Source of the DNA: Candidatus Thorarchaeota archaeon
GTDB taxonomy: Archaea; Asgardarchaeota; Thorarchaeia; Thorarchaeales; Thorarchaeaceae
Length of the DNA stretch: 64,000 bases
Direction of reading: 5' to 3'
Assembly: GCA_019057475.1 (NCBI GenBank)
Contig: DXJO01000027.1
Location: 1-64,000, forward strand
How positions within the stretch are numbered: the stretch's first letter is position 1; each line of letters begins with the position of its first letter. Both the position numbers and the translations under genes were made by a program. This document shows, in pieces, positions 54,809 to 60,421 of this stretch. The notes below the pieces were generated by a model. It had not been told where the DNA came from. It did not search any database and saw nothing but the letters and a program-made list of their open reading frames with translations.

Positions 54809-56665
54809 TTAGTCCCAGTGAAGAGGACTTGCACAATGGGGACAGACTGTGGTTTCGCCGGGCAGACCTCGCTTTGCCAGTGCCCCACGGCAGTGAGAGC
54901 ATTCAATCCTTCTGGGCTGCACCGGCTCGGCCACGGCCTTGCTCCTCAACAGTAGGTCTCTCAGGTTCTCACGCATATCATCCAGTAGACTTGAGAACTT
55001 GGCTTCATCTTCTGAGGCAACAGAGATTCTAGTCTGTTGGTTGTCTTTTGATACTGACCCGATGATGATTACCTCTGCTCCCTCGACAGTGGCCTTGCCG
55101 TAGTATAGGGCTTCTTTCAGCACCTCAAGAAAACCGCGCTCGCCCACAAACCAGACGTCGTGTTGCTCAATTACCTTCTTGACTATGCCAAAGACCTTTT
55201 CGGCATCAGCTTCTGCGTCCAAGGTTACACTGAACTCGCGCTTCGCCTGAAGCTTTTCATCTATGAGACGATCAAGATGGGCCATGTCAGCAGTCGCCAA
55301 GTACGCATCACGAACTGCAGCCTCATTGGCTGTTGGAATCCGCATCTCAGTGTCGCCATGTTCACTGCACGTCAATACTGCCAAAGACTCACCTTCTCGT
55401 TCGTGGGGTTTAATCTCAACGAGGCTGAGCTTATCGTGGCACTTTGGACACTCGTAAAGGCGCCCGTATAGTTTCACCAATAATTCATGGTTCATGCATT
55501 GCACATAGACGCGAGCACTTTCATGCCCGTTCTGGCACTTCACTTGGAGTTCGAATAGTCCATTCTCAATCTTGATGTTGCGGATTGTGAAAGGAGCACT
55601 GCATTTGCCGCATCGGAAGCTCTCCTCTAGAAACTTTTTTCTATCGATGGCTGGCTCTCGTTCCTCGATTTGCTTGTAAACGCCAACCTTGAGCCACTTT
55701 CGCATTGTTCCATGGATGGGACAGACAAGCTCTAGCGTGACATTTTCTCCCTTGACGCTTTTCTCCAGAATGTGTGCCAGAAGGTCGCATTTGTCGCATT
55801 TGAGCACTGCATTGACTATTGCATCTATGGACTGGGTTGTTCGCTCGATTGGTTGCACGATTTCACAAGAGTGACCCTTTGAGCATCTGCACTTCATCTT
55901 GTACCCCTTCTTGTCTGTGTCAATGTTGCGTATAGACAGGGGGCGTCCGCAATCTCTGCATGTGAGAGCATCCTTCACGATGGCATCCTTCTCAGCCTCA
56001 CCAGAAACCTCTCTTAGAAACTCAGCATTCTCAGCAGGTATCTTCTTCTTGCCCTTTCCGTGAACGGGACAGGACATTTCCACATGTGTGTACTTGCCTT
56101 TGACTTCCGCTTTTTCCAATGAACAGCGGAGGCCGCATTCATCGCACAGAAGCACTCTCTGCATGACACCTTTGAGGATGCTTACATCGGAGTTACGAGG
56201 AAGGTATCTCATCTCCTTGTGCCCATTGGGACATTTCGACTTGATTTCGAGAACACCCTTCTTGTCTTCAATTTCATGAACCATGAACTCCTCACTACAT
56301 CGGGGACAAGTGAAGGCGGCTTCGACAGACTTCCCGGTCTTCTCAATGTCAATGAGGGCTGACACCGCTGAATGATGCCCGATTGGGATGGGCCGTTCCT
56401 GAGGTCCGTGTTCTGGACATACAAAGATGAACTTGACCTGGCGCTTTCCCAAGTCAGTACTGAGAAGTCCCATTGTACTGCCGCAGTCCAGACAGATGCA
56501 TAGGCCCTGGTACAAATCCTCCAGCATGCCTTTGGCTTGTTGAAGAGGGATTTTCCTATCTTCTCTGTGACCATTGAGACATTGCACGCGCATCCGTAGA
56601 TTCGATCCACGGATATCGGCGTATTTGACATGAAAGGGTTCATTGCATTTCTTGCACGTGAACAT
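54809..56665 (-). CDS. Uncharacterised protein: 8 alternating C3H zinc fingers, appendage-platform-like domain, C-terminal C4 ribbon
   Basis: Four units of CxxC-x21-CxNGH plus CxxC-x21-CPxHG (minor variants); ends CSHC..CPHC. Confidence 0.85.
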   Translation of the reverse strand: MFTCKKCNEPFHVKYADIRGSNLRMRVQCLNGHREDRKIPLQQAKGMLEDLYQGLCICLDCGSTMGLLSTDLGKRQVKFIFVCPEHGPQERPIPIGHHSAVSALIDIEKTGKSVEAAFTCPRCSEEFMVHEIEDKKGVLEIKSKCPNGHKEMRYLPRNSDVSILKGVMQRVLLCDECGLRCSLEKAEVKGKYTHVEMSCPVHGKGKKKIPAENAEFLREVSGEAEKDAIVKDALTCRDCGRPLSIRNIDTDKKGYKMKCRCSKGHSCEIVQPIERTTQSIDAIVNAVLKCDKCDLLAHILEKSVKGENVTLELVCPIHGTMRKWLKVGVYKQIEEREPAIDRKKFLEESFRCGKCSAPFTIRNIKIENGLFELQVKCQNGHESARVYVQCMNHELLVKLYGRLYECPKCHDKLSLVEIKPHEREGESLAVLTCSEHGDTEMRIPTANEAAVRDAYLATADMAHLDRLIDEKLQAKREFSVTLDAEADAEKVFGIVKKVIEQHDVWFVGERGFLEVLKEALYYGKATVEGAEVIIIGSVSKDNQQTRISVASEDEAKFSSLLDDMRENLRDLLLRSKAVAEPVQPRRIECSHCRGALAKRGLPGETTVCPHCASPLHWD

Positions 56666-56759
56666 AGGATTCCCTCCGCTACAAACGTGCCGCGGCCAAC
56701 TGGGGACTAGCGCTCAGGTCCCTAAAATGCGTTTCCCCAAGAGGAAAACGAACAACCAA

Positions 56760-59036
56760 CTACTGAAGATACAGCGCTATAGTCAATGAATGGGAGCAGT
56801 ACCTGCATCTAATCGGTTTGCGTGTGCCAAGTTCCTCTACCTGCTCTGTTTCCAGTGGAGCGCCACATCGCAAGCAAATCCAGGAGTCCATCGTATCGGC
56901 AAGCTCATCGATTGTTGTTGGCAGCATGGCGATATCCTCACCTAACGCTTCGACCTTCACAACCGAATGCCGACCATTCTCAGGACCAGTAATGAGGAAG
57001 ATAACTGCGACCTTCTTGCCTGTGTACTTCCCCTTCGCAAACCCGCGAATAGTACCTATGAACTGGCCTCCAACAATTGTTTCTTCACTGTCGATGATAT
57101 GAAAGTTCTTGGCCGGGAGTATCTTCTCTGCTTTGGTGAACAGGACTCGGGGGTTCCAATCGAGAGTTTGTTCCTGCTGGGTGATTGTCAAGCTCTTCAG
57201 GATAAGGTCGAATTCCTCTGATGTTTTCTTTGATGGCTTCAACAGGTCACATACAGATCGAATAAGGTACGGTTCGACCTGTACGGTATGAAGCTGGTCG
57301 CGGAAATCGATGAATGACACCGTAGATACAACTTTGCCTTGAACACAGTCCTTGGTGGGGTAGAACGTGAATTGAGGGCTCCTGAAGCCACCCACTTCAA
57401 TACGCGATATCGTTTTCACTGCCTCTCCAGCAAGTTCCATGCTGTCCTTTGGATAAGCGACTATGTTCACCGTTACATTCGTAATGACATAGCCACTATT
57501 GTTCTTCACCTTAACCTTGTAATCGAATTTACCACCCACGATATTGCACCCACGCAGCACTTGCACATCTGCTTGCTGAGCCTCAACCATCTCAACTAGA
57601 GGTTCAAGAATATGCGGCTCTTCATACTCCTCAGCCTCAACAGGCGGCTTGAGCTTGTCCGCCTGTATCTCATCGTAGGCGATTTTCATGGCTTCTGCAT
57701 GATCATGGGGTATCTCTAGGACGTACTTGCCATGCACAGGACATAGCTGCACTACTCGCGACTCTCGCCCTCGTGGTTCAGCGTACACCAGATCCAGAGA
57801 ATCATAACACTCAGGACACTGGTAGAAATGTTTGTAGAGGTTCACCAGTGTTTCCTGCGGCAGACCTGGAACAAAGAATCGCTTTGCTCTATGTCCATTC
57901 CTACATTCAACATCGAACTCGATTAAACCCCTCTTGTCTTCAACGTCCCTGAGAAAGAGCGGCATGTTGCATTTCTCACAGCTAAGACTTCGGACAATTG
58001 AGGGCAGCCTATCAATCATTGGCTCGCGTTCCTTGATGTGATCAAACACATCTGAAGGAACATCTCTTTGCATCACACCATGAATTGGACAGACTACCCT
58101 GAACTCTACTTTCTTCTTACGTCGTTTCACATCATGCCCGTGAGTAAGAAGGCCACACTCGTTGCATGACATCAGGGCTGCAGCAACCCGATCCTTCACG
58201 GGATCACTCCAAGTCAGCGGGATGTTTCTAGTTGTTGTATGACCATCACTTGGACAAATGCATCTGAACTTGTATCCAGACTCGTCACCTTCAATGGCTC
58301 GTATCGAGAGAGGGAATTGGCAATTACTGGAAACAAGCATCGCTCTAACAACGGCGTCCTCAGGTATCTCGCTCGCAGCTTGTTTCATGAGCTTAACTAG
58401 GTCGGCAGGAATTTCCTTCCTATCAGACCCGTGGAGCGGGCATGATATGTGAATTTTGACAGTTTCTCGATTCATCTCAATTCTAGTAATGGTGCTTGGG
58501 AGACCACACCTATCGCAATGAACAACTCGTTGTAGCAGTTGTTTGAGTAATCCTTCTTCAGCATTATCAGGAACGTATCTTGTTGTCTTGTGTCCATTTG
58601 AACACCGCACGAGCATCTCAAGGAAACCCCTTCGGTTCTTAATGCCACTCACTGCATAGACCTGACCACACGAGAGACACTTGAAGGAGTCCAGAATGGA
58701 GCCAGGACTATCCACATCCGCACCTAGAATCTCGACTGTTGACTGAAACTGAGCTGGAAACTCGCGTTCCACTGGGCCATGAATGGGACAGAGAAAAGTG
58801 CTCTCAATCTGAGAATGATGAGGGATGGTGGATAGCTGTGTCATTGAAGACCCGCAGTCGGTGCACAAGAACAATTTCTTGAAAAGGTCTGGAGCCATTT
58901 CTTGAGCTTGGTGCTCGGCCAATCGTCTGACACTTTTATGACCATTCACACACTGAACATCCATCTTCAGGATTTTGTCCTTAATCTCGGCAGCTTGAAT
59001 GTACAGCTGTTGGCTACATTTTCTGCAAGTGAACAT
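56760..59036 (-). CDS. Uncharacterised paralogue: 8 alternating C3H fingers, acidic linker, adaptin/COP appendage-like domain, C4 ribbon
   Basis: Same four-unit repeat; KVKVKNNSGYVITNVTV beta-sandwich; DLLKPSKKTSEEF; ends CLRC..CRYC. Confidence 0.85.
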   Translation of the reverse strand: MFTCRKCSQQLYIQAAEIKDKILKMDVQCVNGHKSVRRLAEHQAQEMAPDLFKKLFLCTDCGSSMTQLSTIPHHSQIESTFLCPIHGPVEREFPAQFQSTVEILGADVDSPGSILDSFKCLSCGQVYAVSGIKNRRGFLEMLVRCSNGHKTTRYVPDNAEEGLLKQLLQRVVHCDRCGLPSTITRIEMNRETVKIHISCPLHGSDRKEIPADLVKLMKQAASEIPEDAVVRAMLVSSNCQFPLSIRAIEGDESGYKFRCICPSDGHTTTRNIPLTWSDPVKDRVAAALMSCNECGLLTHGHDVKRRKKKVEFRVVCPIHGVMQRDVPSDVFDHIKEREPMIDRLPSIVRSLSCEKCNMPLFLRDVEDKRGLIEFDVECRNGHRAKRFFVPGLPQETLVNLYKHFYQCPECYDSLDLVYAEPRGRESRVVQLCPVHGKYVLEIPHDHAEAMKIAYDEIQADKLKPPVEAEEYEEPHILEPLVEMVEAQQADVQVLRGCNIVGGKFDYKVKVKNNSGYVITNVTVNIVAYPKDSMELAGEAVKTISRIEVGGFRSPQFTFYPTKDCVQGKVVSTVSFIDFRDQLHTVQVEPYLIRSVCDLLKPSKKTSEEFDLILKSLTITQQEQTLDWNPRVLFTKAEKILPAKNFHIIDSEETIVGGQFIGTIRGFAKGKYTGKKVAVIFLITGPENGRHSVVKVEALGEDIAMLPTTIDELADTMDSWICLRCGAPLETEQVEELGTRKPIRCRYCSHSLTIALYLQ

Positions 59037-59131
59037 GTCAACTCACCATGGCAAAGCTCAGCAGGAATGAGTGTAACAGGATTGCTCTTAAGACAATTGA
59101 TGATATGCCTTCAGCGGAAAAGGCGTTTGGA

Positions 59132-60421
59132 CTATGTAACGCTTCCCGGGACATCAACACTCTCAAGGAGCTTATCTCCAGCCTTCTTGACCTTGGAACG
59201 GTACCCCCGCGTTGTGTAGACTCTCACAGGTCGGAGGTCACGATTAAAACTGCGAGCAATTAGACTGACCTCATCAACTGGCCAGAACTCATAGCCCTTG
59301 GACCCACGTTCAAAGAACACCAACTCATCAAGGGGGTATTTCCCCGGGTAGTAAGTCACTGAGGGCCTGTCAGGATAGTCAACATAGACATTTTTTGGAT
59401 CGATATCCGCCGCCTCAGCAATCTCACTCTCTGCTTGAAAGAGGCCATCGGGAGTGGATATCTTCTTCATGAAAGCGACATCGGATATCGCTCTTTCGCT
59501 AGCCAACTTGATGAGATACCGCTTTCGGAAGTCCTTGTAGAGCCTGCTTGCAGTCTGCATCTCATCTGTGTCGTCTTCAGTCACTGAGAGTAGTACATCA
59601 AGGAATGAGAGGTCATCATAGAGCAGGAATTGTTCAATGTCATCGTCAGGAGAAAGGAAGAGCTGGGACCCAGCCTCGTCGAGTATACGCAGAAGCATCA
59701 ATTCTGCGGCGCGCACTGTTCGATGGTAATAGACGGCATCGTACATATTGACGCCTGCCGAGAGGTACGCCTCGAAGGTATGCATGGAACTCCTGTTCAA
59801 TGCAATCTTGTTCTTTGCTATCCGTGTTGCGGCGAATAATCTCCGGTACTCTAGCTGAGCGTACTCAACGCCGGCGAAGTATGCGTCACGCTCAAGATTG
59901 TCGATTAATACGGGATTGATGGGACACTTCATGAGATCAAGCCGGAAGCTCTTCAGCGGAACTCCACGCTCTAGCATGTTCTTTATCTCACTGACGGAAG
60001 TCACACTGCCCTTGATGATATCCTTGACCGGTGATTTCGTAGCAATCAAACTGGCAAGCTTCTGTTTATTGGTTCCCCGAACTGTCAAGTACTCTGTCAT
60101 GACATTATTCCAAGGTCCTGTTGACAGAGTGAGAAGCATTGCGATCAGTCTTGCTCTCTGGACTTCATCCAAGTCGCCGTCCAAGGAGTCAAAGAAAACT
60201 TTGGTGACATGCATAACTCCGAGCAGACGACCCATCACTGACGTGTCTGCACCCGGGAAGACCAAGTGAATGCCTGCGGGCCCGCGGATATTGCGCAACC
60301 TCTGACTGAGCCGGAGGTCCAGTATGGATTTCTCAACACTCGAGAGCTCTATGTACCCATGAAGCGGATCTTTGATTTCGAGCACTGATGGATAATCACT
60401 AATCGGCATGAAAGTCCCCAT
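59132..60421 (-). CDS. HD-domain dNTPase-like (SAMHD1/YwfO-type) protein with lost catalytic residues
   Basis: IKDPLHGYI, QRLRNI, LVFPGA, MYDAVYYHRTVRAAELML retained; HTRFEHSLG and LLHDIGH motifs replaced. Confidence 0.85.
   Translation of the reverse strand: MGTFMPISDYPSVLEIKDPLHGYIELSSVEKSILDLRLSQRLRNIRGPAGIHLVFPGADTSVMGRLLGVMHVTKVFFDSLDGDLDEVQRARLIAMLLTLSTGPWNNVMTEYLTVRGTNKQKLASLIATKSPVKDIIKGSVTSVSEIKNMLERGVPLKSFRLDLMKCPINPVLIDNLERDAYFAGVEYAQLEYRRLFAATRIAKNKIALNRSSMHTFEAYLSAGVNMYDAVYYHRTVRAAELMLLRILDEAGSQLFLSPDDDIEQFLLYDDLSFLDVLLSVTEDDTDEMQTASRLYKDFRKRYLIKLASERAISDVAFMKKISTPDGLFQAESEIAEAADIDPKNVYVDYPDRPSVTYYPGKYPLDELVFFERGSKGYEFWPVDEVSLIARSFNRDLRPVRVYTTRGYRSKVKKAGDKLLESVDVPGSVT

Follow-up and report, generated by a model that had tools for sequence, protein, structure and literature searches.

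Tandem Thorarchaeota paralogues joining alternating C3H zinc-ribbon-like arrays to ear-like domains: a candidate protein-interaction scaffold

Zinc ribbons commonly bind nucleic acids, and the C-terminal domains of type IA topoisomerases carry several zinc-ribbon modules of ~50 amino acids (aa) head to tail, tandem ribbons that bind single-stranded DNA or RNA in register. In archaea, adaptin-appendage (IG + TBP) domains have been described as interaction hubs, frequently fused to zinc ribbons (PMC10936438), and adaptin domains have been reported from Asgard genomes, where they are not fused to one another (PMC10307638). The window analysed here, a 64-kb stretch of a Candidatus Thorarchaeota genome (contig DXJO01000027.1), contains two adjacent genes in tandem on the minus strand, encoding the paralogues P0001 and P0002 (38% identity across aa 1-455). 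In each, an array of eight zinc-ribbon-like modules is followed by an ear-like domain and a C4 zinc ribbon. We propose, with a probability of roughly 0.5, that both proteins serve as zinc-stabilised, multivalent scaffolds or adaptors for protein interactions. The genes and their arrays are located as follows.

54809..56665 (-): P0001 gene, the 618-aa paralogue (open reading frame and translation), with eight zinc modules, platform domain and C4 ribbon
56760..59036 (-): P0002 gene, the 758-aa paralogue (open reading frame and translation), with array, hinge, beta-sandwich, platform and C4 ribbon
55292..56665 (-): P0001 zinc array, aa 1-458, four A+B units with eight intact modules of three Cys and one His (C3H), from motif positions, ligand conservation and the AlphaFold2 model
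57651..59036 (-): P0002 zinc array, aa 1-462, seven intact C3H modules and one degenerate
58167..58340 (-): P0002 module 5, aa 233-290, degenerate type A (VSSNC...CICPSDGH), from the orthologue alignment, with the predicted fold kept

Each array comprises eight modules of about 55 aa in which types A and B alternate strictly. Odd-numbered modules follow the type A motif CxxC-x21-Cx(N/K)GH and even-numbered modules the type B motif CxxC-x21(23)-C(P/S)xHG, the four ligands of each module coming from two knuckles, CxxC together with Cx3H (type A) or Cx2H (type B). The CxxC pairs start at aa 4, 120, 236 and 352 (353 in P0002) for type A and at aa 58, 174, 290/291 and 406/407 for type B, with P0002 motif positions offset by one past residue 262. 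The period is therefore exactly 116 aa and, because alternation is strict, the evolutionary unit is the A+B pair of that length. A regular-expression scan of all six frames of the window returned 15 instances, every one within the P0001 and P0002 genes, against an average of 0.007 and a maximum of 1 in residue shuffles of both proteins. The chains contain 31-33 Cys each and, with the terminal C4 ribbon included, 9 predicted zinc sites in P0001 and 8 in P0002.

Much of this layout had been anticipated in an earlier note on the same DNA, which described two proteins starting MFTCxKC, each with four units of about 115 aa holding one CxNGH and one CPxHG finger; both translations agree, and the measured period is close to that estimate. 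The note's tally of 16 finger positions with one degenerate is also correct (15 of 16 intact, the other being VSSNC in P0002 module 5). Its spacing of 21 residues from the Cys pair to the third Cys recurs in 14 of the 15 intact modules, P0001 module 8 having 23 instead, and its range for the repeat, 55290-59036, takes in both arrays but omits the C-terminal 160 residues of P0001, whose gene extends to 54809.

Orthologues were aligned for full-length P0001 (n = 24, 35-91% identity) and for P0002 (n = 26, 60-94% identity); where named, they are mostly labelled Thorarchaeota, with a few Promethearchaeota, Odinarchaeota and Sifarchaeia. Ligand columns are invariant or nearly so in all eight modules of the P0001 orthologues and in seven modules of the P0002 orthologues. 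In the remaining one, module 5, the first Cys is replaced by S, A or T in 26/26 sequences and the His is retained in 12/26; the degeneration of this finger is therefore old and has become fixed in the P0002 orthologue group. The consensus reads f.C.kCg.pl.ir.iE...g.lelkv.C.NGHk..R..p for type A and C.eCGl...l......g...e...lCPiHG..kkeiP for type B. An R/K-x-hydrophobic-P element followed by a helix, which had been reported after each finger, is true as a consensus (NGHk..R..p; CPiHG..kkeiP), and a helix follows each third strand in the structural models.

AlphaFold2, run on both full-length proteins with the orthologue alignments, gave a mean predicted local distance difference test (pLDDT) of 86.4 and a predicted template modelling (pTM) score of 0.65 for P0001, and values of 77.2 and 0.55, respectively, for P0002; along the arrays the pLDDT is 85-95 (86-94 in the P0002 array). 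All 16 modules are predicted to comprise a knuckle, two long strands forming a hairpin, a second knuckle, a third strand and one or two helices, and P0002 module 5 retains this predicted fold despite the loss of its ligands. Read from predicted secondary structure, the module topology is zinc-ribbon-like with an added helix. In a Foldseek search with the whole 618-aa P0001 model, the beta-propellers in the top rows (TM-score ~0.1) were rejected as repeat artefacts, and rows for the beta2 appendage were the only meaningful matches. VIA-align searches with the whole models returned lists dominated by the C-terminal domain, so they bear on that domain rather than on the zinc module; in the ESM Atlas, unit 1 and a single-unit protein reached a best score of 0.86, below the meaningful level, and had no model deposited there. 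We regard the structural description, eight C3H ribbon-helix modules with an ear-like domain and a C4 ribbon, as solid.

That no described family covers the array, as the earlier note had suspected, is upheld by the searches. Neither protein has a match at cut-off in Pfam, NCBIfam or PADLOC, the closest being Evr1_Alr (25.1 bits against 27.6), and a PDB sequence search with the unit profile gave nothing significant (best E 0.083, a 'consensus zinc finger'). DUF723 (PF05265) fell short of its cut-off (18.0 bits, 20.9 required) in an alignment of 12 residues at one CPxHG knuckle, other sub-threshold Pfam matches fall on assorted ribbon knuckles, and Pfam holds no model for the A+B unit. The likeness that the earlier note saw between the CPxHG half and the N-terminal ribbon of some archaeal radical SAM proteins gained no backing: radical SAM families appeared in none of the searches of these proteins, none of which was aimed at them.

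The modules resemble the zinc-ribbon fold of the TFIIS, TFIIB, RPC12/RpoP, Elf1 and MJ0042 types in having knuckles ~21 residues apart, a hairpin and a third strand. However, the usual ligands of those families are C4, whereas the modules described here are C3H, carry their own C-terminal helix or helices and form an alternating A/B pair; no zinc-ribbon family reaches its Pfam cut-off. The CxxCGH ending of the MJ0042-type ribbon is similar to the type A CxNGH, with a weak alignment (AglX, 7zok_A, E 0.1). Type IA topoisomerase repeats share with the array the presence of several head-to-tail ribbon modules per chain, but the array differs in its C3H ligands, its eight modules of two alternating types, its near-neutral charge and its fusion to an appendage-like domain instead of an enzyme; no topoisomerase zinc-ribbon match appears in the Pfam output or in the PDB profile search at E <= 10. 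C2H2 arrays (CxxC-x12-HxxxH, beta-beta-alpha) are set apart by spacing, which here is CxxC-x21-Cx2-3H. A description of a strictly alternating A/B ribbon pair was not found in the literature searched.

Turning to the regions beyond the arrays, the two proteins contain the following features.

54932..55291 (-): P0001 alpha/beta platform (helix-grip) domain, aa 459-578, resembling the platform subdomain of adaptin and COPI appendages
54812..54910 (-): P0001 C4 zinc ribbon, CxxC-x15-CxxC, with conserved LPGET and PLHW; C589, C592, C608 and C611 invariant in 24 sequences
57570..57650 (-): P0002 acidic, Pro-containing hinge, aa 463-489, pLDDT < 50, median net charge -6, least conserved
57237..57569 (-): P0002 beta-sandwich (IG-like), aa 490-600, eight predicted strands, low confidence
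56886..57236 (-): P0002 platform (helix-grip), aa 601-717
56763..56885 (-): P0002 C4 zinc ribbon; C721, C724, C744 and C747 invariant in 26 sequences

The P0001 domain at aa 459-578 has the topology beta-alpha-beta4-alpha and qualifies as an appendage-type alpha/beta platform (TBP-like, helix-grip). Its four best matches in a search of 48,161 PDB representatives are all appendage platforms, given here with the three values returned for each.

3h1z_A, AP-2 beta2: 11.9, 2.8, 104
2mj7, AP-4 beta: 11.3, 2.9, 114
1w80_A, AP-2 alpha: 11.0, 2.5, 101
1r4x_A, gamma-COP: 10.1, 2.9, 101

P0001 has a platform without a beta-sandwich, and P0002 has hinge, putative sandwich and platform. The platform domain is acidic, as is the P0002 hinge. 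Column conservation in P0002 is 0.89 in the sandwich, 0.83 in the platform, 0.69 in the array and lowest, at 0.54, in the hinge. By sequence the two tails resemble each other weakly (hhalign probability 34.5%, E 4e-4), and their putative equivalence rests mainly on shared order and predicted fold. The resulting trunk-hinge-ear layout may be called analogous to that of adaptin large subunits, with the zinc array in the place of the HEAT trunk. Compared with adaptin and COPI ears and with archaeal IG + TBP proteins (PMC10936438), the trunk is a zinc array and not a HEAT solenoid, P0001 lacks the sandwich, and the appendage reading of P0002 rests on a low-confidence model; no HEAT/ARM trunk joined through a hinge was found in either protein, and a disordered acidic hinge is present only in P0002.

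Ear-like tails were also seen in proteins of other architectures. P0049 (783 aa, BAJATHORv1_40169) consists of two tandem P0002-type tails (sandwich, platform and C4 ribbon; 51-53% identical) and has no zinc array; about a dozen Thorarchaeota proteins of this kind (675-805 aa) were identified, none of them in the window's own genome. The P0002-type beta-sandwich recurs both in P0049 and in P0184, a relative described below. The window's own genome encodes a 485-aa protein (L004:742-2199 (+), equivalent to G000:C24:21243-22700) with a sub-threshold HEAT_2 match (20.5 bits against 27.7), the C-terminal half of which is 23% identical to the P0002 sandwich and platform tail (E 7.9e-22). Adjoining its gene, head-to-tail, is one for a small GTPase of the Ras family (Pfam Ras, E 2.8e-47), and a WD40-like protein is encoded nearby, the neighbours being L004:2205-2771 (-) and L004:3-839 (-). 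A protein combining HEAT repeats with an ear-like tail would be nearer to the adaptin layout than the zinc-array proteins are.

The history of the repeat was followed by hhalign profile-profile comparison of the eight units, built from orthologue sub-alignments. Each P0001 unit finds its best match in the P0002 unit at the corresponding position (193-264, against 56-133 for other pairs), and the four-unit array is therefore older than the gene duplication. The profiles of the A and B halves also match one another, with a probability as high as 96% (E 5e-9); thus, a single ribbon-plus-helix module lies at the root of all 16, having first given rise to an A+B pair. No DNA-level tandem repeat was found in the array genes, residual similarity amounting to ~20-26 nt at the CPxHG codons, and a recent DNA-level expansion was ruled out on that ground. 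The unit-by-unit matching and the invariant ligands bear out an earlier suggestion of old duplication under selection. The A+B pair, present singly in small proteins from other Asgard lineages, was amplified to four copies in Thorarchaeota, with the duplication into two paralogues coming afterwards.

Searching 1.84 billion representative proteins with a profile built from the eight window units gave 232 matches at E <= 0.001, eight of which lie below 1e-30. Many consist of several short stretches within profile positions 62-98 and look like chance knuckle matches; among these only P0177 was inspected, whose CPxHG...CPxC repeats carry the knuckles in the opposite order and which is the best DUF723-like match in the library. 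The remaining matches span the whole unit. Among them are small proteins (130-270 aa) in which a single unit is accompanied by a Pro-rich linker and a C4 or DZR ribbon; further relatives carry the unit two or three times, have a transmembrane N-terminus or space their units with Pro-rich linkers. The unit was matched in 112 of the 301 sampled genomes of the phylum and in 61 of 76 genomes of the family to which the window belongs, and weaker matches to single units came from several further families. Labels on its members are Thor-, Loki-, Hel- and Promethearchaeota and Ranarchaeia, and small Loki-, Hel- and Promethearchaeota-labelled proteins contain it once each. The uncharacterised single-unit Asgard proteins (for example P0198, P0322 and P0330) share with the arrays the A+B unit, its six Cys, invariant across distant relatives, and often a terminal C4 or DZR ribbon; they differ in having one unit rather than four, a Pro-rich linker in place of the appendage-like domain and modules that are often both of the CPxH kind.

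Judged by the available names and the low count of library matches, the unit is so far confined to Asgard-labelled records. The only non-Asgard label seen belongs to P0366, a partial single-unit protein of 147 aa assigned to the bacterial 'Candidatus Deferrimicrobium sp.' on a 4.8-kb contig, which is probably a mis-binned Asgard contig.

Some one-unit relatives also carry an ear-like tail. P0184 (601 aa, Helarchaeota, NVM30078.1) contains one unit, extra ribbons and a PCI-like winged helix (19.1 bits against a cut-off of 22, sub-threshold), followed by a P0002-like tail of sandwich, platform and ribbon; the one-unit relative P0176 has a PCI-like winged helix just above the cut-off (Pfam PCI, 22.2 bits against 22). 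One-unit relatives with a PCI-like winged helix are also encoded at L022:1477-3228 / L037:3658-5409, and in L022 a P0184-type sandwich, platform and ribbon tail follows. The joining of unit and ear tail in P0184 and L022 makes this combination older than the Thorarchaeota amplification. A recurrent C4 ribbon, CxxCG-x(6-9)-Y-x-R-(W/Y)-YC-x2-C-x2-Y, which Pfam does not recognise, accompanies the unit in several lineages, at the C-termini of P0175 and P0180 and at aa about 150-175 and 260-285 of P0184.

In the function we propose, three Cys and one His in each module would coordinate a presumed zinc ion, and these structural sites would yield a stiff, elongated structure that presents small beta-sheet/helix surfaces repeatedly and multivalently. 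Docking onto partners could then fall to the appendage-like domain and the terminal ribbon, the whole acting as a protein-protein interaction hub or adaptor. We favour this scaffold role because the arrays are near neutral (orthologue medians of pI 7.5-7.9 and net charge +1 to +3 across about 460 aa), because the fusion partners are interaction domains (appendage-like, PCI-like and Pro-rich linkers), because archaeal appendage domains are described as hubs often fused to ribbons (PMC10936438) and because the trunk-hinge-ear order parallels that of adaptin large subunits. Zinc binding, the rigidity of the array, protein rather than nucleic-acid ligands and any trafficking link are what we infer within this reading.

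The genomic setting was compared across Thorarchaeota. In the window, a further gene on the same strand lies directly upstream of the array genes.

59132..60421 (-): HD-associated-region protein, upstream same-strand neighbour (Pfam HD_assoc_2, E 1.1e-18)

HD_assoc_2 is the sole Pfam match of this protein at E <= 0.001, with none to an HD domain proper. The gene order, namely a 619-aa gene, a 182-aa gene, DUF2070, a UbiX-type flavoprotein, P0001, P0002, the HD-associated protein and an M28 peptidase, recurs at six loci in five further Thorarchaeota genomes of several genera. The HD-associated gene adjoins the array genes, co-oriented, in all six loci; the P0001/P0002 slot holds a single paralogue in some genomes, and the P0001 type is located elsewhere in one complete genome. 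Because the entire block is syntenic, this adjacency is weak evidence of a functional link, and the HD-associated protein is a possible operon partner. The gaps flanking P0002 (56666-56759, 94 bp; 59037-59131, 95 bp) each contain a Shine-Dalgarno-like GGAGG or, for P0002, GGTGA 6-9 nt ahead of the ATG, consistent with P0001 and P0002 probably being co-transcribed; by eye, no TATA box is obvious. A role in a defence system was discarded, as PADLOC has no match for either paralogue or for the HD-associated neighbour.

Several observations weigh against the scaffold role. The C-terminal model of P0002 is of low confidence (pLDDT 50-75), its platform fits generic KA1/helix-grip folds as well as or better than adaptin ears, and the Pfam appendage families are unmatched in either protein (E <= 1; isolated tail, E <= 0.1). 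Gene neighbourhoods are uninformative: synteny extends across the entire Thorarchaeota block, which makes adjacency of little significance, and single-unit genes in other lineages are neighboured by housekeeping genes (LysRS, FAD oxidase, GPN-loop ATPase and ThiF). Finally, basic residues are kept just after the second knuckle in every module, a pattern that nucleic acid or another repeating anionic ligand would fit as well.

This last feature leads to the best-surviving alternative, in which the array would grip single-stranded DNA or RNA in register, in the manner of the type IA topoisomerase repeats, and the C-terminal domain would recruit an effector. The common affinity of zinc ribbons for nucleic acids speaks for it, as do the conserved K/R directly after the second knuckle in both module types, the mildly basic character of P0001 units 1-2 and P0002 unit 3 (median pI 8.5-9.0) and the automatic JGI names on array orthologues (RPC12/RpoP, Elf1 and 'ssDNA-binding Zn-ribbon topoisomerase 1'). 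However, the arrays are near neutral overall and several units are acidic (median pI 5.3-6.5); no topoisomerase, TFIIS/TFIIB or Elf1 ribbon matches at the Pfam cut-off; the conserved neighbourhood contains no nucleic-acid enzyme, the HD-associated protein excepted; and the fusion partners are of the kinds typical of protein scaffolds. We consider nucleic-acid binding unlikely, if still worth keeping in view.

A sub-case of the scaffold role would make these proteins cargo or ubiquitin-type receptors of the Asgard ESCRT (endosomal sorting complex) and trafficking machinery, with the modules binding ubiquitin-like modifiers or sorting signals multivalently and the ear linking to ESCRT or small GTPases. 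Multidomain Asgard proteins with appendages have been proposed as functional analogues of ESCRT-0, and zinc fingers of yeast Vps36 bind ubiquitinated cargo (PMC10936438); the PCI-like winged helix of a one-unit relative and the distant appendage-like paralogue in the window's genome that adjoins a Ras-family GTPase and a WD40 protein point the same way. Yet no ESCRT, ubiquitin or GTPase gene lies consistently beside array or unit genes, no NZF or UBZ family matches at cut-off, and the GTPase adjacency is likely a chance one, small GTPases being so common in Asgard genomes (PMC10307638), which leaves this sub-case rather improbable. More doubtful again, in our estimate, is a wider proposal in which the zinc-ribbon rod stands in for the HEAT trunk of an Asgard adaptor subunit. 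Acting with small GTPases and with the HEAT-like and double-ear paralogues encoded in the same genomes, that subunit would make up a primitive system for cargo sorting or coat adaptors, related by descent, through the ear, to the eukaryotic AP and COPI adaptors.

Zinc centres of the Hsp33 and DnaJ type are oxidation-sensitive switches, and the eight or nine predicted metal sites and many Cys per chain could similarly store and release zinc or sense oxidation, but this is very improbable given that spacing and non-ligand residues are conserved per module in a confidently ordered fold indicative of structural sites, that one module has lost its ligands family-wide with its predicted fold kept, and that the surrounding genes include none for redox functions or metal homeostasis.

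Zinc ribbons are known, singly and in tandem, as are ear-like domains of archaea. What is new is the alternating A+B C3H unit, its occurrence to date in Asgard-labelled records alone and its fourfold amplification ahead of an ear-like domain, all absent from Pfam, NCBIfam, the PDB and the literature searched. The unit merits a domain-family entry, which would bring consistent annotation to hundreds of Asgard proteins now called 'hypothetical' or mis-named 'RPC12/RpoP' or 'Elf1'. If the ear-like domain truly shares an ancestor with the ears of AP-2, AP-4 and COPI, the scaffold proteins proposed here, small, zinc-stabilised and confidently modelled, would offer abundant and well-behaved candidates for finding the ligands of Asgard ear domains, and such ligands would bear on the origin of vesicle-coat adaptors.

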